Below are positions 260-51,829 of a stretch of 64,000 bases of DNA, one piece after another. This DNA is from an uncultured Pseudomonadota bacterium (GTDB lineage: Bacteria > Vulcanimicrobiota > Vulcanimicrobiia > Eremiobacterales > Eremiobacteraceae): NCBI GenBank assembly GCA_963736005.1, contig CAVTNB010000003.1, forward strand, positions 320,001-384,000, written 5' to 3'. Each line of letters starts with the position of its first letter. Position 1 is the stretch's first letter. The translations under genes and the position numbers were made by a program. The notes under the pieces are model-generated. The model saw nothing but the letters and a program-made list of their open reading frames with translations, ran no database searches and was not told where the DNA came from.

Positions 260-316
260 GCAACAGCCCGCGACAACAATGAGTCTCCTATAGGGACGTT
301 CTTCGGGGGCGCAAGG

Positions 317-357
317 TGGCGTCAGAACTGCTCCGTTTTTCCGCATGCCAACACCCC
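317..357. repeat. Degenerate right terminal inverted repeat of an element related to 11657-14721 (element A')
   Basis: TGGCGTCAGAACTGCTCCGTTTTTCCGCATGCCAACACCCC aligns by eye at 31/43 columns with 14679-14721. It has GGACGTT at a similar distance upstream (294-300) and is followed by (C)CAGA. Confidence 0.6.
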
Positions 358-602
358 CAGATTCACGGTGGGGTAGTTAGACTTGCGCCGGAAATGCCGC
401 ATTATCTGCAATCAAAGCGAGAATTTGTCTGAGCTTAAGCTCGCACTGCTGAAAAACGTGAGTTGCCCCCCCTGTTCCCAAAACACCAGCATTTCCAGCG
501 CAAGTTAAGGCAGAGCGTTCCGACGTCTCCTTGAACATCTCTTGAGACCTCGTTGAGCAAAGCTTTAGGACTTTCATGGCGCTCACCTGGTATAGTTCGC
601 GG

Positions 603-9097: not shown

Positions 9098-11539
9098 ATG
9101 GACGTTGCCAAGACGACGACAACCACACTCCTCTCTCCCCTCACAAAGCGGGAGCAAGAAGTGTTGGAGCTTATGGCATTCGGACTTGCCAACAAAGAGA
9201 TCGCCGACAAACTGTCATTGAGCCGGCGCACCGTCGAATCGCACATCGATCGATTGCTTGGGAAACTCAACGCGCCGACCCGAGCACGTGCGGTCGTCGA
9301 GGCCGGACGGGCTGGTCTGCTTGGCGGTCAGACCCTGAAGAACGCCGCCTATTCGGCAAACGACCGTCCTAACAACCTGCCGTTGCAGCTGACGACGCTT
9401 TTGGGTCGCGAGCAAGATCTGGTTGAGGCGAAGTCCTTACTTGAAGCCCATCGCCTCGTCACCATGTCGGGATCGGGTGGCGTCGGCAAGACGCGGCTTG
9501 CGTTGCGGGTAGGCGTCGATCTCCTTGAGCAATATCCCAACGGCGCCTGGTTGTGTGATTTTTCCCCAATCTCAGATCCGGGGCTTGTTTCCAGCGCCGT
9601 AGCAAAAGCGTTGGTTGTTCGCGAGCGACAAGATCGTCTGCTTGTCGAGTCTATCGTCGACAGCTTAAAGCGCAAACAAGCCTTACTGATTTTTGACAAT
9701 TGCGAACACGTCCTGGATGCGACTGCGGAACTCGTCGACGCAATCTTGCATAACTGCCCCAACATCCGAATTCTCGCGACCTCGCGCCAAGCGTTGGGCA
9801 TCGTAGGGGAGCTGGTATATCGGGTTCGCTCACTTGCAGTGCCCGACTCAACCGAAGGTTTGAAAGCCGACGAGGGCTTGCGCTATGGAGCCATTGCTCT
9901 TTTTGTCGACCGAACGCAGGCGTCGGATGCCGGCTTTGCTTTCACCGACGAGTACGCACCCATCATTGCTGAGATCTGTTCTCGCTTGGACGGTATTCCA
10001 CTGGCCATTGAACTGGCAGCGACGAGAAGCAAGGTCATCAACATTCAGAGCTTAGCCCGGAGTCTGGACGATCGCTTCAAGGTGCTGACGACAGGGGGTC
10101 GCACGGCTCTGCCTCGCCATAAGACTTTGGCCGCGCTCATCAGTTGGAGCTACGACCTGCTCGCCGCTCACGAGCAGGCGCTCTTTATGCGCTTAGGCAT
10201 CTTTGCCGGAGGCTTCAGTCTGGCTGCGGCTCGAGTGGTCTGCTGCGGCGATGGTCTCGATGAGATCGACATTCTGGATCTGCTGTCGTCATTGACCGAC
10301 AAGTCGTTGGTCGTCGCTGACACCGGCGGCGAGCACGAACGCTATCGCCTGCTCGAATCCACACGCGCCTATGCGTTGGAGAAGCTCGCGGCTGCAGGTG
10401 ACCGCGAGCGGCTGGCGCGCCGTCACGCCGAGTATTTCCGCGACCAGGCGCAAGAGTCTGACAAACGTTACGATACGGAATTGATTGGACGGCTCGCGAA
10501 CGCGGCTGGGGAACTAGACAACTACCGAGCCGCATTGGAGTGGTCGGTTGCCGACGGGCACGATGCGGTGCTGGGCGGTGTCGTCGCTGGGTCGCTGGAG
10601 CGGCTCTGGCTTGACGGCGGCCTAGCGGCGGAGGGACGTTATTGGATCGAACGTGCGCAAGCGGGCCTTAGCGAATCAGCGCATCCACAGCCGGCGGCCC
10701 GGCTGTGGCGCGCGCTGACCCGCCTGTCCTCAGGCACGCGCAAGCGCGACTACGCGGAGCGAGCCTTCACGCTGTACCAGTCTGTGGGCGACGGCCATGG
10801 GGCGGCCCGGGCGCTCCTCGAGCTTGGGCATGCTCTCTATCAAATGGGCCGCTTCGAGGAATCAAGTGAGGCGGTCGCACGCGCGCTTGCGGCGCTGCAA
10901 AAATACGGGGATAAACGAGGAGTGGCTCGGTGCCTTGGCCGTCAGGCGGACATCTATCGGTCTCGCGGCGATGTCGCTACGGGGCGCGAGCTGTATACCC
11001 AGGCGCTTGAGGCATTCAAGGCCCTTGGAGACGAGGACGGGACAACCATGGTGTTGGCAAATCTCGCGGAGGCCGAATTCAGAGAGGATCATGTTGAGCA
11101 AGCGCTGCGCTTAGCGAGCGAGGCCCTGGAGATTAACGCTCGTGGGAAGAACGCGACGAACTTGGCGCTTGAATCCGTCAACAGCGCTGCGTATTGCATT
11201 GCGCTGGGAAAGCTGGATCGCGCACGTGACGTCGCGCGCGAGGGACTGCGTTGGGCACGACAAGCGCAAGATGCACTAAATATCGCACTCGCATTGCAGC
11301 ATTTTGCGCTGCTCGGGGCGTTGCACCGAGAAGTGGATATTGCGGCGCGGCTCATCGGTTACGTCAATGTGCAGCTCAAAGAGCTCGGGTCGGAGCGTGA
11401 GTACACCGAAAAGTGGGGCTACGAGAAGCTGATGACCGGACTACACGAGCGACTGAGTGAGGCCGAGATAGAAAAGCTCGCGGCCGAAGGCGCGGTGTGG
11501 TCGGAAGATCAGGCGATCGAAGAAGCACTTAAGGTCTAG
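9098..11539 (+). CDS. LuxR-HTH / STAND-type ATPase / TPR transcriptional regulator
   Basis: N-terminal LTKREQEVL...GLANKEIA..L.LS.RTVESH; Walker A GSGGVGKT; Walker B LLIFDNCEH; LDGIPLAIELAA; C-terminal TPR-like repeats. Confidence 0.9.
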   Translation: MDVAKTTTTTLLSPLTKREQEVLELMAFGLANKEIADKLSLSRRTVESHIDRLLGKLNAPTRARAVVEAGRAGLLGGQTLKNAAYSANDRPNNLPLQLTTLLGREQDLVEAKSLLEAHRLVTMSGSGGVGKTRLALRVGVDLLEQYPNGAWLCDFSPISDPGLVSSAVAKALVVRERQDRLLVESIVDSLKRKQALLIFDNCEHVLDATAELVDAILHNCPNIRILATSRQALGIVGELVYRVRSLAVPDSTEGLKADEGLRYGAIALFVDRTQASDAGFAFTDEYAPIIAEICSRLDGIPLAIELAATRSKVINIQSLARSLDDRFKVLTTGGRTALPRHKTLAALISWSYDLLAAHEQALFMRLGIFAGGFSLAAARVVCCGDGLDEIDILDLLSSLTDKSLVVADTGGEHERYRLLESTRAYALEKLAAAGDRERLARRHAEYFRDQAQESDKRYDTELIGRLANAAGELDNYRAALEWSVADGHDAVLGGVVAGSLERLWLDGGLAAEGRYWIERAQAGLSESAHPQPAARLWRALTRLSSGTRKRDYAERAFTLYQSVGDGHGAARALLELGHALYQMGRFEESSEAVARALAALQKYGDKRGVARCLGRQADIYRSRGDVATGRELYTQALEAFKALGDEDGTTMVLANLAEAEFREDHVEQALRLASEALEINARGKNATNLALESVNSAAYCIALGKLDRARDVAREGLRWARQAQDALNIALALQHFALLGALHREVDIAARLIGYVNVQLKELGSEREYTEKWGYEKLMTGLHERLSEAEIEKLAAEGAVWSEDQAIEEALKV

Positions 11540-11716
11540 ACTCGCAAGCAGATATCAGCAAGACTAGTTCTTTATGTCGAGGGCAGCACGAATAGTAGGG
11601 TGTTCCCAAAACCGCCGCATTTTGAACGCAAGTTTATCTACCCAGACGTTTTGACCGGGGTATAGTGGAACGCGGGAAAATGGACAACTCTTGACGCCAG
11701 TAACCTCGTTCATTCA

Positions 11717-11898
11717 AACGTCCGGTGCCTGCGAACCAACGTCCGATGCCCCTGCAATTGCGATCAATTGGTTGCACGTAGCGAACCGGTGAAACGTCCG
11801 ACGCACACGCTTTTTCCCGATAGAGCGCTCCTTTTATGGCACTTCACCCTTGCTACGGCATTGCGTCTGCAAACGCAATCAAACGGCCAAACGTCCGG
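11717..11898 (-). repeat. Left subterminal AACGTCCG(G/A) motif cluster (4 copies)
   Basis: Copies at 11717, 11738, 11793 and 11890; reverse complement of the right-end motif. Confidence 0.8.
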
Positions 11899-11941
11899 CT
11901 CGATGCCCAGTACAGAGCGTAACTAATACCTGAAAGGCGAA

Positions 11942-12136
11942 CTAACTCCGCGCCTTGGCGCACTCAGGGCACGTGTTGTAAACACCAGGTCCTTGCTGCC
12001 CCCGCATCATCTTCCACTGCGCAGCAGTTCCTGGAGTAATCTTCGTTGTGCAGCGACCGGCAACGTGGGACTCGGATGGGCACCCACCACATCGGCATGC
12101 GACGTCTCCCTTTTGATCGATTCCGAATTTAATCAT
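11942..12136 (-). CDS. Small Cys-rich (possible zinc-binding) protein, 64 aa
   Basis: AGAGGA RBS; CRCGGC...H...C...CPEC pattern. Confidence 0.55.
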   Translation of the reverse strand: MIKFGIDQKGDVACRCGGCPSESHVAGRCTTKITPGTAAQWKMMRGQQGPGVYNTCPECAKARS

Positions 12137-12429
12137 ATCTCATTCCTCTTTTAAACGCTCCGTAAAAACAAAAGGCGAAACGACCTCTTTGCGGCCATTT
12201 CGCCTCGGCTTCCACACCGTTACAAGCGTGGGCTACGGAGTGCTGTGTTGGTTCGCGGGATCTCTGATTGCACCTTGCTTTTTCTTGTACCATCGGGTGA
12301 GTATTGGATGTTGCTTTAGCCGATGTGATCACCCACGGCTGGCGTCAGAACTAGACGGTTGTAATTCGCAAGCGCGACAAACGTCATCTTTTTTGAGCCG
12401 AAAAAGATGACTCTAAGCGGTGATCAACC

Positions 12430-13038
12430 CTAGCTGGGCAGGAGCACCAAGTCTGCCGCTTCCTCAGCATCTTTGAGGAGCGTCTTGCGCGGCGTGCCTA
12501 TCCGCGCACGCACGGTCAGGCCACGAGCAAAATCCGTAACTTGGATCGCGCGCACGGCTACCGGAAAGTCAGGCGGAATGTCCCCCGCACAGATCCCGTC
12601 GCGGAAACGGCGCTCCACCAGCGCCACGGCGCCCGCGACCGTACTCTGCAGGAACCGCCGAACCTCAGCGTCGTTCAACAGCGGCGCGACGCACACCAGA
12701 AGGCAGCCCCGGGCGGACCCTTTCTCGGTCGCGCTTGCGACGGCGTACCTCAGAAAGCTTGCGAGCGAGTCGCGCAGAGCCTGCGGCGCGAGGAGTGCCT
12801 TCGCGGCGAGAGCGCCCTTCCTCTCGGCGTACGCGTGGAGGACACGCAAGAATATCTTCCGCTTGGACCCAAAAACTGAATACAGACTCGGCCGCCCGAC
12901 TCCCATCCCGGCGACGAGATCGTCGATCGTCACTCCGTCGTAGCCTTTCAACCAGAACACCTGGGTCGCTTTTTCCAGCGCGTCCCTCTCGTCGAAGCTG
13001 CGCGGTCGTCCACGTGGCCTGGCGGTATTTTGAAACAT
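12430..13038 (-). CDS. TetR/AcrR family transcriptional regulator
   Basis: RGRPRSFD...A..VFW.KGYDGVTIDDL...MGVGRPSLYSVFGSK; RGCLLV; AGGAG RBS; divergent from the SDR gene. Confidence 0.92.
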   Translation of the reverse strand: MFQNTARPRGRPRSFDERDALEKATQVFWLKGYDGVTIDDLVAGMGVGRPSLYSVFGSKRKIFLRVLHAYAERKGALAAKALLAPQALRDSLASFLRYAVASATEKGSARGCLLVCVAPLLNDAEVRRFLQSTVAGAVALVERRFRDGICAGDIPPDFPVAVRAIQVTDFARGLTVRARIGTPRKTLLKDAEEAADLVLLPS

Positions 13039-13168
13039 TTGGTTCGAAACTCCTTGTTCTTGGTCATCCAATCCATTATAGTACGGAAAGGTTCGAAATT
13101 GGCAAGTCGACCCCTGGCCTCGCGGGGGCCTCACGACCCGACCTTTCCCCTTCACCACGGAGACGCCC

Positions 13169-14143
13169 ATGGAACATTCAATCGCTCTCGTCACCGGCAC
13201 CACCTCCGGACTTGGACATGCGGCAGCCCGCATGCTAGCCGCGGAGGGCTACCGCGAGGTCATCGTCACCGGGCGCAGCCTGGCCCGGGTACAGGAAACG
13301 GCAGCTGGGCTCGCAGCTGAGACCAAGACGCAGGTTTTTACACCGCTAGAGCTGGATCTGGACTCGCCGTCTAGCGTTCAATCCGCACTCGCCGAGCTCG
13401 TCAAGCGAGGTCGGCCGGTCGATTTCCTACTGCTAAATGCAGGGATGGTCGGAGGTAAGAAGCGCGTGGTCACTGCGGCGGGCGTCGAGGCTTCTCAGGC
13501 CCCGCTAATCGGCCATCATCAACTGACTGTTGGGTTGCTCCGCGCCAACCTGCTGAGCCCCGACGCGCGGATTGTTATCGCCGGCGCGGAACCTGCCCGA
13601 GGGGACGTGCCCCTGTTCAGCTTCACCGACGTGGCGGCCTTCGCGGCCAAACGCCACCAGGGTGACCGAACCGCCGCTATTGAAGCCCTGCTGCGCAACG
13701 GGCCGAACGTGAAGTACGTGCCCAACCGGGCGTATGCCGATGCGAAGCTCATCATCGCTTGGTGGGTCGCGGCGCTGGCGCGCCGGCTACCCTCCGGCAT
13801 GGCCGTATACGCCGTCTCGCCCGGTAGCGCGCCCAACACCAAGGCGGTGCGTAACGCTGGCCCGGCCTTGAAGTGGCTGATGATTCCGCTGGTGAAGCTC
13901 ATCCCCGGCATGTCTCAGACGCCGGAGACCGCGGCTCGTCGCTACCTCCAGGCATCGGAGTTCGGAACCGACGTGTCGGGGCAATTCTTCGCCTCGGCGC
14001 CCAAGAAGCTCATCGGCCCAATTGAGGCAATGCGCCACCCACACTTGCACGATCGCGCCAACCAGGAAGCCGCGTGGCAGGCCGTCGTCAAGGTCTCTGG
14101 CGTCGACTTTTCTTATCCCGCATCCTTGAGCGCGTTGTCCTGA
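13169..14143 (+). CDS. Short-chain dehydrogenase/reductase (SDR)
   Basis: ALVTGTTSGLG, LLLNAG and YADAK (YxxxK) motifs. Confidence 0.92.
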   Translation: MEHSIALVTGTTSGLGHAAARMLAAEGYREVIVTGRSLARVQETAAGLAAETKTQVFTPLELDLDSPSSVQSALAELVKRGRPVDFLLLNAGMVGGKKRVVTAAGVEASQAPLIGHHQLTVGLLRANLLSPDARIVIAGAEPARGDVPLFSFTDVAAFAAKRHQGDRTAAIEALLRNGPNVKYVPNRAYADAKLIIAWWVAALARRLPSGMAVYAVSPGSAPNTKAVRNAGPALKWLMIPLVKLIPGMSQTPETAARRYLQASEFGTDVSGQFFASAPKKLIGPIEAMRHPHLHDRANQEAAWQAVVKVSGVDFSYPASLSALS

Positions 14144-14190
14144 AGGAGCGCCGGTTGGCGGACGGATACTGGTGGCAACGGGTTGGACCA

Positions 14191-14661
14191 CCGGACGTTG
14201 GCCGCGGTGACGAATCAAAGCCGAATGACCGGACGTTTGTCGGCGGATCCAAAACCGGAAGTTGGGGCTGCTTGTGTAGTATCCCAAGCGAAAAGACACT
14301 ATTGCCATTAGGCACTGAAACCCGGACGTTGCCCCGTTTTATGGCGTTTTGTAGATTGCATTGCACATTGCAACCCTTGAATCGCGGCAAAGCCCCGGGA
14401 TTCACCGGGGGAAGGCGTATGCCCCGGACGTTATTCAGACGCTTGATAACCATTCGTATGATCGCGATTGCAAGTACCGGACGTTTGATTGATCGTCTCC
14501 TGAATAATCTCGACAATTCGTAACTCAATCGCCTAGCTTGAAATTGAATTCAAAATCGACCGCAAGCCCGCAAATATACAATTGTGGGCAATGCGATCAT
14601 CGTAAGCAATTAAGTAATCAAATCGGGAGGCCCGGACGTTAGCAGCTGGGCACCGGACGTT
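14191..14661 (+). repeat. Right subterminal CCGGACGTT motif cluster (7 exact copies plus 1 variant)
   Basis: Copies at 14191, 14229, 14322, 14424, 14477, 14632 and 14653; variant CCGGAAGTT at 14255. Confidence 0.85.
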
Positions 14662-14759
14662 TGGCAGATCAGCCCGACTGGCGTCAGAAGTTGTCCAATT
14701 TCCCGCGCTCCACTATACCCCCCAGACGTTCGACCGCGGAGGAGAAATCGTTGGCGGTT

Positions 14760-14775
14760 TATAATTAGCCACTAA
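14760..14775 (+). promoter_or_regulatory. -10 box and candidate MarR operator
   Basis: TATAAT at 14760-14765 overlaps the TTAG-CCA-CTAA dyad just upstream of marR. Confidence 0.45.
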
Positions 14776-14797
14776 ACCATTAGGAGCTGAACTACTC

Positions 14798-15349
14798 ATG
14801 AAAACCACTCCCCGGACGGACGGCGAAGCACCGACCGACATGGTGTTGTTGCGCCGTGGCGTTGCCGGAATTTGTGACCGCTTTAGCGGCAGCGATTACG
14901 ACACCATGAACACATTTCTCACGCTGAAGCGCACCGCTGCAGACCTTGAAAATCTTTCGACTGAGTACTGCAAGCAGGGCGACGTTTCGCCCGGGCGTTT
15001 GGGCGTGCTCATGGTTTTAAACGCCAATCCTGAAAAGCAAATACCTCTTAGCGAAATTGGCCAATACCTGGTTGTGTCGCGGCCGAACATTACCGGTCTC
15101 ATCGACGGCCTGGTCGACGAAGGTCTCGTCAAGCGCATCAATCACCCCGAGGATAGGCGCATGATCCTCGCGCAACTCACCCCTCAGGGGCGAGACTTTA
15201 TGCGAAAATTCGTACCATTCCATTTGCGAGTGGTCAGTAGCGCGATGGCCGGGTTGACAAGAAACGAAAAGCGCCAACTCGTATCTCTCCTCGACAAGCT
15301 TCGCCTCCATCTACACGGCGTTAAGATCCCACATCTAGAGGAAGCATAA
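14798..15349 (+). CDS. MarR family transcriptional regulator
   Basis: LSEIG..L.VSRPNITGLIDGLVDEGLVKR...PEDRR....QLTPQG. Confidence 0.92.
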   Translation: MKTTPRTDGEAPTDMVLLRRGVAGICDRFSGSDYDTMNTFLTLKRTAADLENLSTEYCKQGDVSPGRLGVLMVLNANPEKQIPLSEIGQYLVVSRPNITGLIDGLVDEGLVKRINHPEDRRMILAQLTPQGRDFMRKFVPFHLRVVSSAMAGLTRNEKRQLVSLLDKLRLHLHGVKIPHLEEA

Positions 15350-15352
15350 GTC

Positions 15353-16564
15353 ATGGCAGTCGCCGCACGAGCACCAGAACCCGTGACCGGTCGCAAGCGC
15401 CGCGTTCTTATTCCCGTTATTGCTGTTTTGGTCGTCATCGGACTTTTTTATGGCATCCGCTTCCTGATATTTTCAGCCCATCACGTTGGTACGGACGACG
15501 CTGAAATTGGCGGCAACATCACAACGATTAGCGCGAAGGTCAAAGGCCAGGTTGTCGCAGTCTACGTGAGCGAAAACCAGTTCGTTCACCGCGGTGACAG
15601 GCTTATTCAACTAGACGATCGCGACTACAAAGTAGCGCTGGCACAATCGCAAGCGGCCTACGAACAGGCCGTCGCGAACCTGCAAGCGGCAACCACGGCG
15701 GTTCCCCAGCAGTCCGCGATGACCGCGGCTCAAACCGCGCAGGCCCAAGCGGGCATCTCACAATCATCAAGCGGGGTACTCAACGCACAGGAACGGGCGG
15801 ACTCAGCGCGCGCCAACTACATGGCCGCCCAAGCCAACGCGGTGAAAGCCGCGAACGACGTTACTCGTGCTCGCACCCTCGCGTCGGAAGGCGCGATCGC
15901 CAAATCAGACCTTGATTCTGCCCAGGCGGCCTACGTGACTGCCCTCGCCAACCGCGACGCCGCGAGACAAGCCATCGATGCTGCGGAAGCCGCTGTCAGC
16001 CAGGCGCAGGCCCAAGTTGTCGGCAGCCAAGCGCAACTCGAGCAGGCGCAAACGGGCACGCAGACAACCGAAATCAAGTCGGCCCAAGCGCACGTGAGCG
16101 CGGCGCAAGTGCAAGCCGCGGCCGCAGCACTTGCCAACGCAAGACTGCAGGAATCATACACGAGGATCACTGCGCCTGTGGACGGCGTCGTCAGTAAGAA
16201 GTCTGTCAATGTCGGCGACCAGGTCTCCGTCGGGCAGCCGCTGATGGCCCTGGCCGATCAGACGCATCTCTGGGTTGACGCAAATCTTAAAGAGACGCAA
16301 ATCTCAAACGTCCGCGTTGGACAGCCAGTAGACATCACGGTTGACGCGTTCCCGCATCGTGTATTTAAAGGTAGCGTCGCAAGCATTTCGGCGGCGACCG
16401 GCGCTACCTTCGCCCTGATCCCACCCGATAACGCGAGCGGCAACTTCACCAAAGTCGTGCAGCGCATACCCGTGCGCATCGCGATCGATCCAAGCTCCGA
16501 TCCCGAGCACTTGCTGCGTCAAGGGCTGTCCGTCGAAGTCAGCATCGACACGACTAACCATTAG
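15353..16564 (+). CDS. emrA: EmrA/HlyD family efflux membrane-fusion protein
   Basis: N-terminal TM, TDDA, coiled coil, ITAPVDG, P.DNASGNFTKVVQRIPVRI. Confidence 0.9.
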   Translation: MAVAARAPEPVTGRKRRVLIPVIAVLVVIGLFYGIRFLIFSAHHVGTDDAEIGGNITTISAKVKGQVVAVYVSENQFVHRGDRLIQLDDRDYKVALAQSQAAYEQAVANLQAATTAVPQQSAMTAAQTAQAQAGISQSSSGVLNAQERADSARANYMAAQANAVKAANDVTRARTLASEGAIAKSDLDSAQAAYVTALANRDAARQAIDAAEAAVSQAQAQVVGSQAQLEQAQTGTQTTEIKSAQAHVSAAQVQAAAAALANARLQESYTRITAPVDGVVSKKSVNVGDQVSVGQPLMALADQTHLWVDANLKETQISNVRVGQPVDITVDAFPHRVFKGSVASISAATGATFALIPPDNASGNFTKVVQRIPVRIAIDPSSDPEHLLRQGLSVEVSIDTTNH

Positions 16565-16575
16565 AGATTAGACTA

Positions 16576-16601
16576 GGCGGACCTCAAGGTCCGCCGCTAC
16601 A
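16576..16601. repeat. REP family 1 (GCGGACCTNAAGGTCCGC..CTACA)
   Basis: Palindrome with a CTAC/GTAG foot; further copies at 23760, 26761, 27395, ~32915 and 45071. Confidence 0.8.
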
Positions 16602-16610
16602 GACGCGATT

Positions 16611-18179
16611 GTGAAGCAAAGACAGCCGCTCATTACGGGCAACAAGTGGCTCATCGCCGTTCCGGTGATGCTTGCGGCACTGATCGCGGTTTTGGACGCA
16701 AGCATCGTCAATGTCGCGCTGCCCAACATGCAATCGAGCTTCGGCGCTGGCGTCGATGAGATCGATTGGGTAATCACCGGCTATCTCATCTCGAACGTCA
16801 TCATCATCCCGACGACGGGATGGATGTCGAGCATCTTTGGCCTCAAACGCTATTTTGCAATCAGCCAGATTGTGTTCGTCATTGCATCGTTCTTGTGCGG
16901 CATTTCTTGGAATCTGCCCTCGCTTATCTTCTTCCGCATCCTGCAGGGCATTGGTGGAGGCGCAATCCTCCCGGTTGCCTTGACGATCTTGCTCGAGGCG
17001 TTTCCACCGCAAGATTTCGCGATGGCATCGGCCCTCTTCGGCGTCGGCGCAACGCTTGGTCCAGCCATTGGCCCGACGCTCGGCGGCTGGCTGACGGACA
17101 CGCTTTCGTGGCAGTGGATTTTCTTCGTGAATGTGCCGATCGTGACGGTCTCTGTGATCTTGAGCCAAATGCTGATCGGCGAAAACAAAGAAGTGCTCGC
17201 CGGGCGGCGTGCGGCTCCGATTGATTTCCTCGGGCTCTTGACCGTCGCGGCGTGGCTGGGCACGTTGCAGGTCTTGCTTCAGGAAGGTCAGCGTGATGGC
17301 TGGTTCGAGTCGCCCTTCATCATTACGCTCGCGGTGATTTCGGTCGTCTCGTTTGTGCTGTTTCTCTACTTCGAATTACGCTTGCCCAATCCGTTGATCA
17401 ACTTGCGCATCTTCAAGAATCGAAATTTTGCCATTGGTTCGTTTGCCGGTGCCATGCTTGGTGCGGCCCTCTTTGGAGCTATTTTCATTTTACCGCTCTT
17501 CGCCGGCTTGCTCTTGCATTATACAGCACTACAGATTGGGCTTGTGCTCTTACCTCCGGCGCTTGTGAGTCTCGTCCTCTTCCCAATCGTCGGCCGGCTC
17601 GCGAGCGTCGTGGACTCTCGCATTCTAATGGCGATCGGTATTGTCTTGTTTGTGATCTCGCTCTTTGGCAATGGCTTCATCAACTTGCAAACGTCCTGGC
17701 AAACACTCGTCTACTTGCAAATCTTCCGCGGTGCGTCGCTCCCGTTCTTGTTTACATCGGTAGGCGCGCTCTCGCTCACCAACATCGCTCCGCAAGAGAA
17801 AGCCGACGCCTCTTCGCTTTTCAACTTAACGCGAACGCTGGGCGGCTCTATTGGGATCGCGGTCATCGGAACGACGCTTGTCAACCGCCAACGCTTTCAT
17901 TTTGAGCGCTTTGGCGAGTCAATCACGCAATTCGGCGTGGCCACGCGCGAGCGGCTGTCCGAGCTAGCGACCGGCATTACCGGCCATCTCGGACCGGGGC
18001 AGGCGAGCTCGCAAGCGCAGGCGGTGTTAGCCCAACAATTAAGCCAACAAGCCTATGTGTCCGCGTTCAACGACGTTGCACTCGCCCTCGCAGCAGGTTT
18101 TGCGCTTGCCTTGCTTTTGATTCCGTTGTTCCGCATGCGCGGGCGCGTGCCGAGTGGCGGCGCTCCATTGGCCGAGTAG
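16611..18179 (+). CDS. emrB: DHA2/EmrB family MFS efflux permease
   Basis: LDASIVNVALP, WVITGYL, FRILQGIGGG, GPAIGPTLGGWL, WIFFVNVPI. Confidence 0.92.
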   Translation: MKQRQPLITGNKWLIAVPVMLAALIAVLDASIVNVALPNMQSSFGAGVDEIDWVITGYLISNVIIIPTTGWMSSIFGLKRYFAISQIVFVIASFLCGISWNLPSLIFFRILQGIGGGAILPVALTILLEAFPPQDFAMASALFGVGATLGPAIGPTLGGWLTDTLSWQWIFFVNVPIVTVSVILSQMLIGENKEVLAGRRAAPIDFLGLLTVAAWLGTLQVLLQEGQRDGWFESPFIITLAVISVVSFVLFLYFELRLPNPLINLRIFKNRNFAIGSFAGAMLGAALFGAIFILPLFAGLLLHYTALQIGLVLLPPALVSLVLFPIVGRLASVVDSRILMAIGIVLFVISLFGNGFINLQTSWQTLVYLQIFRGASLPFLFTSVGALSLTNIAPQEKADASSLFNLTRTLGGSIGIAVIGTTLVNRQRFHFERFGESITQFGVATRERLSELATGITGHLGPGQASSQAQAVLAQQLSQQAYVSAFNDVALALAAGFALALLLIPLFRMRGRVPSGGAPLAE

Positions 18180-18199
18180 ACCCTACTTCAGGAAAAACC

Positions 18200-18225
18200 C
18201 GCGCGAATAAATTCGCGCGACTACA
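18200..18225. repeat. REP family 2 (CGCGCGAATAAATTCGCGCGACTACA)
   Basis: Further copies at 27434, 27468, 34668, 34732, 40328, 49346-49426 (x3) and 59182. Confidence 0.85.
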
Positions 18226-18227
18226 AG

Positions 18228-19745
18228 CTATGTTTTTTGGCTGACCGCAGCGAGGAAATATGCCGTCCTTTGCGGCGCACCACCTAAAGCTTGCGCTGCG
18301 GCTAAATTGTTTTTCGCGTCGGGGACGTTGGTCAAAATAAGATCGATCATTCCGGCAACGAAACGGCCAGGCTCATACGCAGGATTTACCTGCGTCGCCC
18401 TGTTGGCATTGACCGCAGCCGAACCGATATCACCAGTTTGCAGCTCTACAACCGCGAGACTCGTGTAGATTTCAGCGCGCCCTTGGCGCGAGAGAGCGGT
18501 ACCAAAGAGTGTTGCTGCTTGCTGCATGTCTCCATTCGCTTGGGCGGTGAGACCAGCGTAATATGGCCCGCGCCAATCATTGGGCGCAGCTTGTTCTGCG
18601 GCGCTAAATGCTTTGGAAGCCAATGCCATGCGGCCGCTGAGCAGAGCTGCAGCGCCGACGTTGAGCATCGCCTCGACGGCTGGCGGCCTACTTGCCAGCG
18701 CAAAATTGAGCCTCGTGTTGAGCACGGCGCTGGTTTGGCTCGCGTCGGCCTCCGGTAGTGAGCGAGTAAATCCGAGATCTTGCGTTACGTCAAGCAGATA
18801 GCTTCGCGCGTCACCGGAGACAATCGAAAGCGGCGTCGAGGTCGGAGCTGTTGCGATGATTCCGCCTTTCGGCGTGGCCGTTGCCCATGGTGGACGAGCC
18901 GGCGTTGGCGTTTGGATTGCGATGGGCGTCTCCACGATCGTCGTGTGCGCGTGCGTCAATGTTGGGGTTGGACTCGGCCGCGCAAGTGCAATGACCTTCG
19001 TAGGCGTGGGCACGGGGGATGGCGGGGGTGATGGCGCGGGTGACGGACTCGGGGCGGCAATTGGCTTGACCGTCAAGAGAGGACGCCGCGTTTTCGTGTT
19101 GCGTGGATCGACGCCTACCCTACGATAGAGAGCCACTGCTTCGCTCTTGCGCCCGAGTTTTTCGAGAGCCTCGGCACGACCGATCGTCGCCGGTCGATAG
19201 GTCGGCGAGCGACGCAGTTCGATTTCGAAGTCCGAAAGCGCAGCGGCGTAGAGCCCTTCTTCCAATTCCACCACGCCAAGGTCATAATGAATGAAGGGCT
19301 GGTCTGGAGCGGTCGCGGTGGCTACGCGAAGTTGCGCGTCGGCAAGCTCCTTTTTGCCTTGCTGCTCGTAGAGCTGCCCAAGCGCCACGAAATTCCAAGG
19401 ATAGTGCGGATCCGCGCTTTCCCCTGCGCGATAGTAGCGCTCAGCTGTTTGGGGATCATTTGCCCGCTGGGCGACGTTGCCGGCTCGGTTTGCGACGGAC
19501 GCGTCGGTTGGACTTTCCTGGACCGCACGCTGCGCAAGCGCAAGCGCCTGAGGAGCATCTCCTCGGGAAATGGCTTGCTCGGCCATATCCATCGCGCTCG
19601 CCTGCGTCTGCGTCGGAGTGCCCGCGTGCAGCCAACTGAGCCCGCCGAACTTGCCAGGCAAGAAATTCAGAATCACGGCAACAAGCGCTGCAGCCGCGAC
19701 CAGGATCGCGACCCAGACGAGAATCCGCTCGATCAGTTGCGCCAC
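18228..19745 (-). CDS. Membrane-anchored TPR protein
   Basis: N-terminal TM helix and two TPR blocks separated by a Pro/Thr linker. Confidence 0.8.
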   Translation of the reverse strand: MAQLIERILVWVAILVAAAALVAVILNFLPGKFGGLSWLHAGTPTQTQASAMDMAEQAISRGDAPQALALAQRAVQESPTDASVANRAGNVAQRANDPQTAERYYRAGESADPHYPWNFVALGQLYEQQGKKELADAQLRVATATAPDQPFIHYDLGVVELEEGLYAAALSDFEIELRRSPTYRPATIGRAEALEKLGRKSEAVALYRRVGVDPRNTKTRRPLLTVKPIAAPSPSPAPSPPPSPVPTPTKVIALARPSPTPTLTHAHTTIVETPIAIQTPTPARPPWATATPKGGIIATAPTSTPLSIVSGDARSYLLDVTQDLGFTRSLPEADASQTSAVLNTRLNFALASRPPAVEAMLNVGAAALLSGRMALASKAFSAAEQAAPNDWRGPYYAGLTAQANGDMQQAATLFGTALSRQGRAEIYTSLAVVELQTGDIGSAAVNANRATQVNPAYEPGRFVAGMIDLILTNVPDAKNNLAAAQALGGAPQRTAYFLAAVSQKT

Positions 19746-19830
19746 GTGTTGTGCGTCTTCGCTCCAAAGGACTAGGCTGTTGCGACGTTGTGCCTATGGG
19801 CCCTGTATTTTATTCCTCGAAAGTTCGAGG

Positions 19831-22800
19831 ATGCGCTGCCTCCAGCGGCTGCCTAACCGAGCAGTTCGGTATTTGGCGTGGCTGTGTCTTTTTTTGATGC
19901 TCTTCCCAGGATTTGTGGTCGCTGCGGGCACGCCGACAACCGGGGCGGTCCCGGTAGTGACCAATATTTCCGGGGCAGTGTCGGTGCGGGGTCGCGACGG
20001 CGTGTCACGCGACGTTCTCTCGTCGCGCATCATTCACTCCGGCGACACCTTGATAACGGGCGTCGATTCGCTGGCGCTCGTCAATCTGGCCGATGTGGGC
20101 AGTGTGCGTATTGGACCGGCAAGCACGGCCATGGCGTCCGTTTCAGCGAGCAGCCTCTTCGTCAACATCTCGTCGGGATCGGCGTGTGCCCAAGCGCTGA
20201 GCCGCGGGGTGACGATAGCGGCGGGATCGCTGACCTTTGCGGCGGACGACCAAACCGCAATCTTCAGTCTCATACGCGATTCCAGCACGACAACAATCGC
20301 GGTATATCAAGGAAGCCTGACTGCCAGGCTCGGTAAGTCAAGTTCGTCTAAGCCTATCACTTTCAACGCTGGCGAGGCGGCGGTTAGTTCCGGAAACGGG
20401 GCGCTCCAACAAGTGGCGCTCGACAGCGTACAGCCGTCATTCGCCGCGCTCAAGTGTCCGGATGATGACGTCATCGCGCGCGTCATGCCCACACCGGCCC
20501 CCAGTGGCGGCCATGGTGGTGGAGGGGCAGGCGGAATTCTGGCGGCTCTTCTTGGCTTGGGTGCGATTGCGGCAGCAGCTGGCGGGCATGGTGGGGGTGG
20601 CGGGGGCGGTGGTTCGTCTCCGCCGACTGCTCCGCCATCGATTCCGCCGGGCACACTCAGTGTCAATCCAGGCAGCCTTTCGTTTCTGGTTGCCGGTCCG
20701 ACCCAAACGTTTACTGCTTCCGAATCTAGCTATTCTGGACCGATCAACGCCGCGAGCAACGATACCTCGGTCGCAACCGTAACGCCCGCATCAAGCCCCG
20801 GTCCGGGGCCCGTCACCTTTACGGTCACCCCGGTGGGTCAGGGCAGCACGACGATTGCAGTGACCGACAATCATGGCGGTTCGCAAAGCGTTAGCATCAC
20901 CGTGACGCCGCCGGGCGACCTCTCTGTCAATCCTGGCAGTCTGACGTTCGTCCTCCCGGGGGGATCGCAAACATTCAAAGCGAGCGAATCGTCGTACACT
21001 GGCGCGATCACAGCGCATAGCAACGATACGACCGTTGCAACAGTTTCTGGCTCGGGTAACGGTCCGGGTCCGGTCACGTTCACCGTTTCACCCGTCGGTG
21101 CAGGCACGACCACCATCACTGTGCACGGTGGAGCGGCGCCAGCCACGGTCAGCATCACGGTGGTTGGCCCGCTCACGACCGACAAAGGATCGCTTACGTT
21201 CCTCGGAACGACAACCAATCAAAACTTCACGGCAAGCGATCCGTCGTATACAGGCGCGCTCACCGCGATGAGTGGCGACATAACCGTGGCGACAGTCTCG
21301 CCGGCATCGCATGGTGGGCCCCAAGCGACATTTACGGTCACACCGGTTGCTTCAGGGAACACGACCATAACGGTTAGCGATACGCTTGGCGGCAGCGCCA
21401 CCGTGAATGTCAGCGTGTCAACGGGAGGGCTGACGGTAAATCCAACAAGCTTAACGCTTACGGTTGGTGGTTCCACAGAAACGTTTACCGGGAGCGAAGC
21501 AAACTACACGGGTCATATATCTGCGAGTAGCAACGACACCGGCAAAGCGACTGTCTCCCCGGCATTCGGTCCTGGTCCGGGTCCCGTGACGTTCACGGTC
21601 ACCCCGGTTTCGGCCGGCAACCCGGCTATCGCCATCACCGACAACCACGGAGGTGGCCCGATCTTCGTCAACCTCACAATCACGGGCCCGCTCACCTCAC
21701 CTGCAAACGTAACCTTTGATGGGTCGTCTTCGTCTCCGCAAAATGTCAATGTCACCGATCCTAATTATAACGGTAGCATCACTGCGAACAGTTCTGACGC
21801 CAGCGTCGCCACGGTCAACTCTCCACAAAACGGACCAAATGCCACGTTCTCTGTCACACCAAAAAAGCAAGGCACGGCGACTCTCACATTTACTGACGCG
21901 AATAACGGCAGCGACACAACGCTCGTGACTGTGAATCCCGGGTCGCTCACCGTCAGCACGTCGTCGGTCACGCTCAATGGAGCGGGCGACACCGCGCCAT
22001 TTACTTCTTCCGAACGTTTCTACACAGGCGCTATTTCAGCTGCGACCGATGATAACACGGTCGCCACCGTAAGCCCCGCTTCTGGCAGTGGGCCCGGCCC
22101 AGTATCGTTCACGATTACAGCGGTCGGACCAGGAACGACCAACATCACAGTGACGGATAACCACGGAGGCTCGCAGCCGATCAGCGTCACCGTTAACGCC
22201 ACGCCCGTCCTCTCCCCGGGCTCGCTGTCGTTCACGGACGTTGGCACGGGCAAGCCCGTCACTATCTCCGAACCTGGTTACAACGGAAACCTTACGCGCA
22301 CGGGCGACACGTGCGGATCAATGGGCATCGCGACCGTTCTTCCAAACCCGGTTGCCGTCTCGGGAACAATCACCGTCACTCCCTCGTCAACTGCTTCTGG
22401 CGGAACCTGCCAGTTTGCGTACAAGGATTCATTTGGCAATACGAGTGCACCAGTCACCGTTACCGTTGGGCCATTCGGGCCAGTCTCCCCAAATCCGACG
22501 TCCCTGACGTTTATGGACGTCGGAGCTGGCAATGCCCAAACGTTCACCGCGTCGGAAACCAAATATTCTGGACAGCTTACGATCGACGCAAGCGCGTGCG
22601 CCGGTATCGCAACGGTAAGCCCCAACTCGGGGGCGAGCGGCACAACCTTTACGGTCACGCCGGTTGGAAGTGGTGGCCCGTGCGATGTCAACGTCAGCGA
22701 CGACCATACGCAATCGGCCACGGTGAGCGTGACGGTTGGCCCGTTTGGGCTTGTGGTTCCCAGTCCCGGGAGCTTATCGCTGACCTTTACAGGACCCAAC

Positions 22801-51665: not shown

Positions 51666-51816
51666 GGGCGACTTGACAGTCGCCCGCTACAGGTTCTCTG
51701 CTACATGGGAACTTGAGAGTCGCCCGCTACAGGTTCTCTGCTACATGGGAACTTGAGAGTCGCCCGCTACAAGTTCTCTGCTGGTTGGCAGGGGCGATTT
51801 GCCAATCGTCCCCTAC
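51666..51816. repeat. 40-bp tandem repeat (about 2.8 copies) built from REP family 4, followed by a family-3 REP
   Basis: ACTTGASAGTCGCCCGCTACARGTTCTCTGCTACATGGGA starts at 51671, 51711 and 51751 (last copy partial). Confidence 0.85.
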
Positions 51817-51829
51817 GGGGTCAGCGGAT

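Follow-up and report, generated by a model that had tools for sequence, protein, structure and literature searches.

Casposons, the Cas1 transposons, are the proposed source of spacer acquisition in CRISPR systems. Here we analyse element A, a 3.07-kb unit found in a single copy by genome-wide search, which lies in a 64,000-nucleotide stretch of DNA (the window; positions 320,001 to 384,000 of contig CAVTNB010000003.1, assembly GCA_963736005.1) from an uncultured bacterium of the Eremiobacteraceae. The element carries a TetR-family regulator gene and a short-chain dehydrogenase/reductase (SDR) gene between terminal inverted repeats (TIRs). Its class, which an earlier reading from the sequence alone (hereafter the sequence-only reading) had left unnamed, is most likely casposon-derived, and we consider it quite probable that A is, specifically, a Cas1-less casposon derivative with ends that a casposase placed next to the marR-emrAB promoter, at a site that is fixed.

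Published casposon target-site duplications (TSDs) have a median length of 15 bp, and the bacterial casposons of family 3 (e.g., AceAut-C1) and family 2 resemble A in their TIRs, duplication length and intergenic site (PMC4046053); unlike them, A carries neither Cas1 nor PolB. In Methanosarcina, tandem casposons with a common 14-bp TSD leave solo TIRs behind, and A recalls them in its shared 14-bp TSD, reused site, inactivated neighbours and leftover ends (PMC4779613). However, the Methanosarcina remnants are single TIRs or full-size copies with a broken polB, whereas A is two-ended with unrelated cargo; moreover, the TSD at A's site varies among genomes and its anchor seems to be a promoter region. 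Engineered mini-casposons show the same TSD-TIR-cargo-TIR-TSD layout, a 14-15-bp duplication, tandem insertion and a site choice made outside the TSD (PMC10359463, PMC6614799), and one of them entered a casposon TSD in vivo to give a tandem (PMC10359463). These are laboratory constructs in archaea, whereas A is natural and only putatively mobile. The casposase of A. boonei depends on a motif that lies 8-15 bp beyond the duplicated segment, most of which can itself be deleted, the TSD being largely non-specific (PMC6614799). In the literature searched we found neither a natural two-ended cargo-only casposon or subterminal motif arrays nor a casposon in this phylum (including a search for casposon with Eremiobacter); subscription papers and the supplementary element tables of PMC4046053, PMC4779613 and PMC9966878 lie outside that literature and may list such elements.

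Structure of element A

The host genome (G000) comprises 2.84 Mb and is 84% complete; the relatives compared belong to the Vulcanimicrobiota/Eremiobacterota, with 251 genomes in the class set (G numbers denote genomes and L numbers loci). We distinguish ends of type 1 (A's TIRs), type 2 (those of the neighbouring unit B) and type 3 (similar to those of the casposon in G020). Element A consists of the following features:

11642..11656, plus strand: left TSD copy, CCAGACGTTTTGACC, 15 bp, one base longer than the right copy (from the sequence)
11657..11701, plus strand: left TIR, type 1, starting GGGG (inverted-repeat comparison)
11702..11900, minus strand: left subterminal arm with four polar copies of CGGACGTT (11717, 11738, 11793, 11890)
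12340..12350, minus strand: isolated copy of the motif found in the inner part of type-1 ends, TTCTGACGCCA, probably debris
12383..12411, strand not applicable: palindrome just 3' of the TetR gene, a possible terminator
12430..13038, minus strand: TetR-family regulator, 202 aa from the ATG at 13038 (Pfam: TetR_N and a weak TetR_C_13)
13169..14143, plus strand: SDR, 324 aa, with TGxxxGxG, NAG and YxxxK motifs visible (Pfam)
14144..14676, plus strand: right subterminal arm with seven polar copies of CGGACGTT (14192, 14230, 14323, 14425, 14478, 14633, 14654)
14252..14285, minus strand: nested type-3 casposon end in the right arm
14677..14721, minus strand: right TIR, type 1
14722..14735, plus strand: right TSD copy, CCAGACGTTCGACC, 14 bp (from the sequence)

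The architecture proposed by the sequence-only reading stands in full. The TIRs match at 41 of 45 positions, form the longest inverted repeat in the window and, as a pair, give a blastn E value of 9e-12 across 73 bp against the genome; the inner 15-bp exact inverted match (11715-11729 with 14649-14663) is present; the imperfect 14-15-bp duplication differs between its copies by one gap and one mismatch; a 5-bp duplication around A is absent; and no open reading frame (ORF) for a recombinase or transposase was detected within it. The contrast between GC-rich cargo and AT-richer arms is likewise real (53% GC in the arms, 62% in the TetR-containing stretch and 65% in the SDR gene). Beyond this, the arms hold the 8-mer CGGACGTT four times on the minus strand at the left and seven times on the plus strand at the right (11 in total). 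The 8-mer occurs 149 times in the 2.84-Mb genome, and A's arms form its only clusters of more than two copies (Poisson P of 5e-9 and 2e-17). These polar arrays are likely candidate sites at which a protein encoded by the element binds. The duplication of A is itself similar to the arm motif and may have remained from an earlier deletion.

Cargo between inverted repeats without a transposase, iterated polar end motifs and stacking at one site are also features of Tn3 mobile insertion cassettes and of Tn7/Mu-type ends, but those systems make 5-bp duplications and use DDE transposases, neither of which was found at A. The idea that A is itself a Tn3-family mobile insertion cassette, with GGGG inverted repeats around its cargo and a Tn3 transposase acting in trans, is in our view scarcely probable and largely refuted. 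Its ends do start with GGGG, extend over about 45 bp and have an A-rich run near position 20-25, which we take to be Tn3-like features; however, a 5-bp duplication is missing, 14-bp duplications recur in relatives, PF01526 (TnpA) had no match in G000 (the search was confined to this 84% complete genome), and the site is linked to PolB stubs and to a casposon TIR.

The marR-emrAB site and its stacked units

Element A abuts the promoter of the host marR-emrAB efflux-pump genes and is followed upstream by further ends:

14736..14797, plus strand: host marR-emrAB promoter/operator region, with TATAAT at 14760 (marR, HlyD and MFS genes)
11597..11643, minus strand: type-2 end of the neighbouring, older unit B (sequence comparison)
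370..412, plus strand: other type-2 end of unit B (sequence comparison)
315..357, minus strand: orphan type-1 end of a third, more decayed unit (sequence comparison)

Unit B, about 11.3 kb long with TonB-receptor, Vgb-repeat, ASCH and LuxR-ATPase genes as cargo, meets A head-to-head over the shared duplication (its end at 11597-11643), while a degenerate spacer of 12-13 bp lies between B and the orphan end. A further type-2 end, truncated, at 473-507 faces the 370-412 end, giving a short inverted pair upstream of an ORF at 576. The LuxR-HTH/NB-ARC/TPR regulator at 9098-11539, with a 3' end that has matches elsewhere in the genome at eight or more places, accompanies the ASCH and Vgb-repeat genes and is duplicated in G026.

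The same site is occupied in relatives. Of 17 loci that contain the marR promoter, 15 have an end of type 1 or type 2 at a distance of 37-40 bp from TATAAT, the -10 box of marR (G003 and G012 have no end), a fraction that is inflated because about half of the loci were found using the TIR itself; L118 and L119 repeat the sequence of G009 and were excluded from the counts. The 14 bp beside the end differ among genomes, even between G000 and its congener G002, in which the downstream region is 89% identical. Within a genome, the same 14-mer recurs on the opposite side of the unit (14/14 in G002, 14/14 in G026 and 13/14 in L113), and head-to-head ends over a 14-mer occur in G000, G026, L113 and L116. 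Several of the units lack Cas1 and carry other cargo, namely a 1.27-kb unit with MarR and cupin genes in G002, a 1.17-kb unit with one small ORF in L113 and an 8.3-kb unit with a GNAT/TacA pair and a LuxR block in G026. In several genera, although not in G000, a TTGAC box resembling a -35 element lies directly beside the 14-mer. The marR promoter region is a candidate leader that may fix the insertion site.

It could be argued that the 14-mer is the crossover core (attL/attR) of a site-specific recombinase, or that the 45-bp repeats bound an invertible segment, and the fixed chromosomal position, the stacked units and a gene block inverted in G026 relative to G000 would suit such a mechanism. 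We nevertheless judge it very unlikely, because the 14-mers of different genomes are unrelated, which should not occur with an att core; in addition, no recombinase family was found among 109 ORFs from these loci at E<=1e-6, and the middle duplication is direct rather than inverted. We rejected the view that the junctions are hairpins or integron-like, since each consists of two ends placed head-to-head. The motif GCATTT-N4-CGCAAG was also abandoned as a target because it belongs to the type-2 ends. There was no tRNA or tmRNA target in the window or in the 20 kb upstream.

These observations bear on two claims of the sequence-only reading. The TIR family is present in relatives with other cargo, and the opposite picture, in which the TIR occurs nowhere else and the cargo is inherited vertically, does not hold. 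The mobile origin of the cassette is upheld by the TIR family (at 315-357 and in relatives, with different cargo) and by a cargo that is not vertical; that A is still mobile, or moved as a unit, is not, given its decayed ends and duplication, the lack of a second copy and of any Cas1 or PolB found. The view of A as the best-preserved and probably youngest unit is consistent with its ends, the best kept of the array, and with its promoter-proximal position.

Elsewhere in and near the window we noted several short palindromic intergenic repeat families ending in CTACA (REP-like; 16575-59219), which include small tandem runs at 51671-51818, and, just before the window (L001:19138-19722), a thioredoxin-like reading frame interrupted by TGA.

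Casposons of the class and the origin of element A

The GGGG ends and the 14-bp duplication at a reused site led us to suspect casposons. Cas1 (PF01867) had no match in G000 or in four relatives; in the class set, Cas1 matches occurred in 84 of 251 genomes, and in 65 of these they are, by best hit, solely of a divergent long ORF type (up to 10 matches per genome); genes of this long type are often multi-copy. Examination of 16 stretches around such Cas1 genes verified casposon structure for six elements in five genomes, all of which have Cas1, a PolB-like gene, TIRs starting with GGG and an exact 14-15-bp duplication. Intact casposons in the host's own family include those of G007 (16.4 kb) and G020 (18.7 kb); examples of the Cas1 elements are G007:C3:448924-465366, G020:C52:87988-106703 and those in G128, G070 and G124. 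Intact relatives encode a Cas1 with a C-terminal Cys-rich extension, a PolB with a C-terminal HTH, and HNH-like and HTH genes. The best PDB match of the G039 Cas1 is 6OPM (E 6e-19), the family 2 casposase of M. mazei, which ranks ahead of CRISPR Cas1s. Some casposons of the class have very long TIRs (>700 bp in L100) and some stand in tandem; in the type-3 casposons a target sequence, which seems to lie within a conserved gene or at its end, is conserved over two families (L095:13974-14022, L100:3241-3290, L104:13198-13278, L106:3640-3690).

Several lines of evidence tie A to these elements. Its TIRs, its 14/15-bp duplication with two changes and its site-specific tandem insertion fit a casposon or its derivative. 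The motif CGGACGTT stands at +61/+82 in both ends of A and, in the same polarity, at +54/+72 and +55/+74 in the G007 casposon; it is also present, again in that polarity, at +24 in the G020 and G039 ends. When the end alignments were tested against dimer shuffles, 0 of 1000 shuffles reached the observed score in each of three pairs, with thin margins. Over 35 columns, the nested end at 14252-14285 shares 89% identity with the TIR of the casposon in G020, which is intact. PolB remnants occur at A's site in relatives: in G007:C2, a 728-aa C-terminal part of PolB lies inward of a marR-site type-2 end by about 0.85 kb, and G009:C11 has a PolB stub inside a 9.1-kb unit at the marR site. Locus L115, which has a type-1 end, is 96% identical to window positions 14654-20000, i.e., from the right TIR on, and combines nearly A's duplication sequence with a different interior and with arm segments similar to both arms of A (the left arm of A is 68% like the arm of that element). 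A C-terminal PolB fragment (42% identical to the G020 PolB; class hidden Markov model (HMM) E 1e-27) lies 8.4 kb inside this locus, fused to a truncated TonB-receptor gene. Elsewhere in the genome, a lone type-3-like end (G000:C1:1340908-1340948) adjoins a gene that is also present in the G002 island, and no Cas1 or PolB remnant was found within 10 kb of it.

A number of points weigh against a casposon derivation. A lacks the Cas1 and PolB of an autonomous casposon, and neither was found in the genome (PF01867 and class HMMs; 84% complete); remnants of Cas1, PolB, HTH and HNH genes were not found in A or its island with sensitive class-specific HMMs. An intact casposon with type-1 or type-2 TIRs was not found in any set searched: the search with A's ends gave two loci in the species genomes (strict pattern), none in viral contigs, six genomes, all of the host's family, in the class set and nine loci in metagenomes, and the type-2 end pattern gave one genome out of 401, in each case without an intact casposon; Cas1 had no match in the viral contigs. 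A's outer 45 bp share little with the G007 and G020 TIRs besides the G run, and although the right end of A is the top match in the genome to an HMM built on the G007 end, its E value is only 0.7. The L115 PolB fragment could belong to a nested type-3 end rather than to the type-1 end, and the identity of PolB in the class casposons rests on family B motifs and a sub-threshold Pfam match (E 1.5e-4), a comparison with PDB giving no match. At the site itself, three of the five loci found by promoter sequence alone (G008 excluded) have an end, and the duplications are degenerate in G009 (9/14 ungapped) and G029 (7/14 ungapped).

Alternatively, the ends might be those of an unknown transposon of another kind that generates 14-bp duplications, with the casposon fragments present just as cargo of the island; searches revealed no intact casposon that has exactly these ends, and the casposon link runs via a shared 8-mer, a nested end and PolB stubs. 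We think this unlikely, since the position and polarity of the 8-mer match those of true casposon ends, the geometry of ends and duplication is that of six intact casposons, and three independent PolB stubs lie at the site.

Cargo, mobility and a working model

The TetR and SDR genes called by the sequence-only reading were confirmed by Pfam; they are divergent and are the only recognisable genes in A. The best NCBIfam model for the SDR is PRK06197, under its cut-off. The two genes form a block with sharp borders (12437 to about 14155), and their GC content at third codon positions (0.75 in both) compares with 0.61-0.71 in eight other window genes. At the DNA level the block is 80-92% identical in nine genomes of two families, at other loci, while emrB is 71% identical in two of those genomes and barely alignable in three; among congeners, two have no match and a third has a 32-bp match only. 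For this reason, the sequence comparison indicates that the TetR-SDR pair is not vertically inherited at A's locus. In G043 the block lies amid casposon debris, with Cas1 fragments on both sides and one casposon-type end; the same is probably true of G029, where motif copies flank it, and possibly of G037, with one candidate end. The other six genomes offered nothing convincing as casposon context, and a complete pair of TIRs and TSDs around the block was found in none of the nine. Since casposon context is missing around most copies, the cargo is not casposon-specific; it is a generalist passenger. The divergent layout of the two genes suggests putative autoregulation and a putative detoxifying role. 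In G026 (L022), an SDR 92% like A's has another TetR as its partner, and 23 bp of the gene for that TetR (L022:15246-15268 and 16448-16470) are repeated just past the SDR stop, which may bear on how the cassette moves.

Movement of A as a cargo-only unit and loss of its core genes once it had been inserted are almost equally probable, with a slight lean to the latter. Insertion as is, i.e., as a natural non-autonomous mini-casposon mobilised in trans with cargo-only traffic through the site, is a narrower version of the casposon-derivative reading with the same origin, and we regard it as possible, if a little short of evenly probable. It is favoured by several small Cas1-less units with perfect or near-perfect duplications. 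One of these, a 4.9-kb element in G051 (L107:4442-9372) with perfect TIRs and a 15/15 duplication, lies directly before a Cas1 gene in tandem, has no Cas1 or PolB match itself and is a cleaner non-autonomous casposon candidate than A. Furthermore, G026, a different genus in which marR-emrAB is only 71% identical, has the LuxR block together with its type-2 end at 92% identity, reversed and flanked by a different perfect 14-mer; in vivo tandem insertion of an engineered mini-casposon also supports such traffic (PMC10359463). On the other hand, A occurs once, drift is visible in its ends and its duplication, nested debris lies in its arms, three elements at the marR site are visibly decaying in place with PolB stubs, and no helper was found in the genome (84% complete). 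Contigs from four sequencing runs contained no joint skipping A, and none of those contigs spans A; one of them joins the right TIR and marR to a different interior (no RNA run is listed, and the best DNA share is 0.20).

Taking A as a casposon derivative, we propose that the casposase would read host sequence outside the duplicated segment, measuring from an anchor in or near the marR promoter, cut 14 bp apart and duplicate whatever lies between. Such measuring from an outside anchor would account for a 14-mer that is repeated inside every genome but is not the same from one genome to the next. If the regenerated site is used again, units would stack head-to-head, with the newest nearest the promoter, as in A, B and the orphan end. 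Support for these steps comes from the published work on casposases, tandem casposons and mini-casposons cited above (PMC6614799, PMC4779613, PMC10359463). The polar CGGACGTT arrays would likely bind a protein of the element. At some point the core genes would have been deleted and the promiscuous TetR-SDR pair captured, somewhat more probably after insertion than before. Since the genome yielded no casposase, A would remain stranded until an intact relative entered the cell.

More tentatively, and with doubts that outweigh our confidence, we speculate that a natural family of cargo-only mini-casposons shuttles accessory genes among soil Vulcanimicrobiota. Its members would be inserted by Cas1 supplied in trans, 14 bp from a promoter-linked anchor and with duplication of the bases in between, into a polarised, CRISPR-like array with whole gene cassettes as 'spacers', would have ends with arrays of a protein-binding motif like those of Tn7/Mu, and would be fed by a large and apparently undescribed casposon radiation of the class. 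Should A simply have lost its core genes in place, it would be a scar, modest in interest, that still points to this radiation. The wider result is the divergent long Cas1 found across the class. Few bacterial casposons have been described, and the locus offers a bacterial target site, a set of TIRs and candidate casposases, with which it can be tested whether Cas1 transposons carry accessory genes in trans and build leader-polarised arrays.

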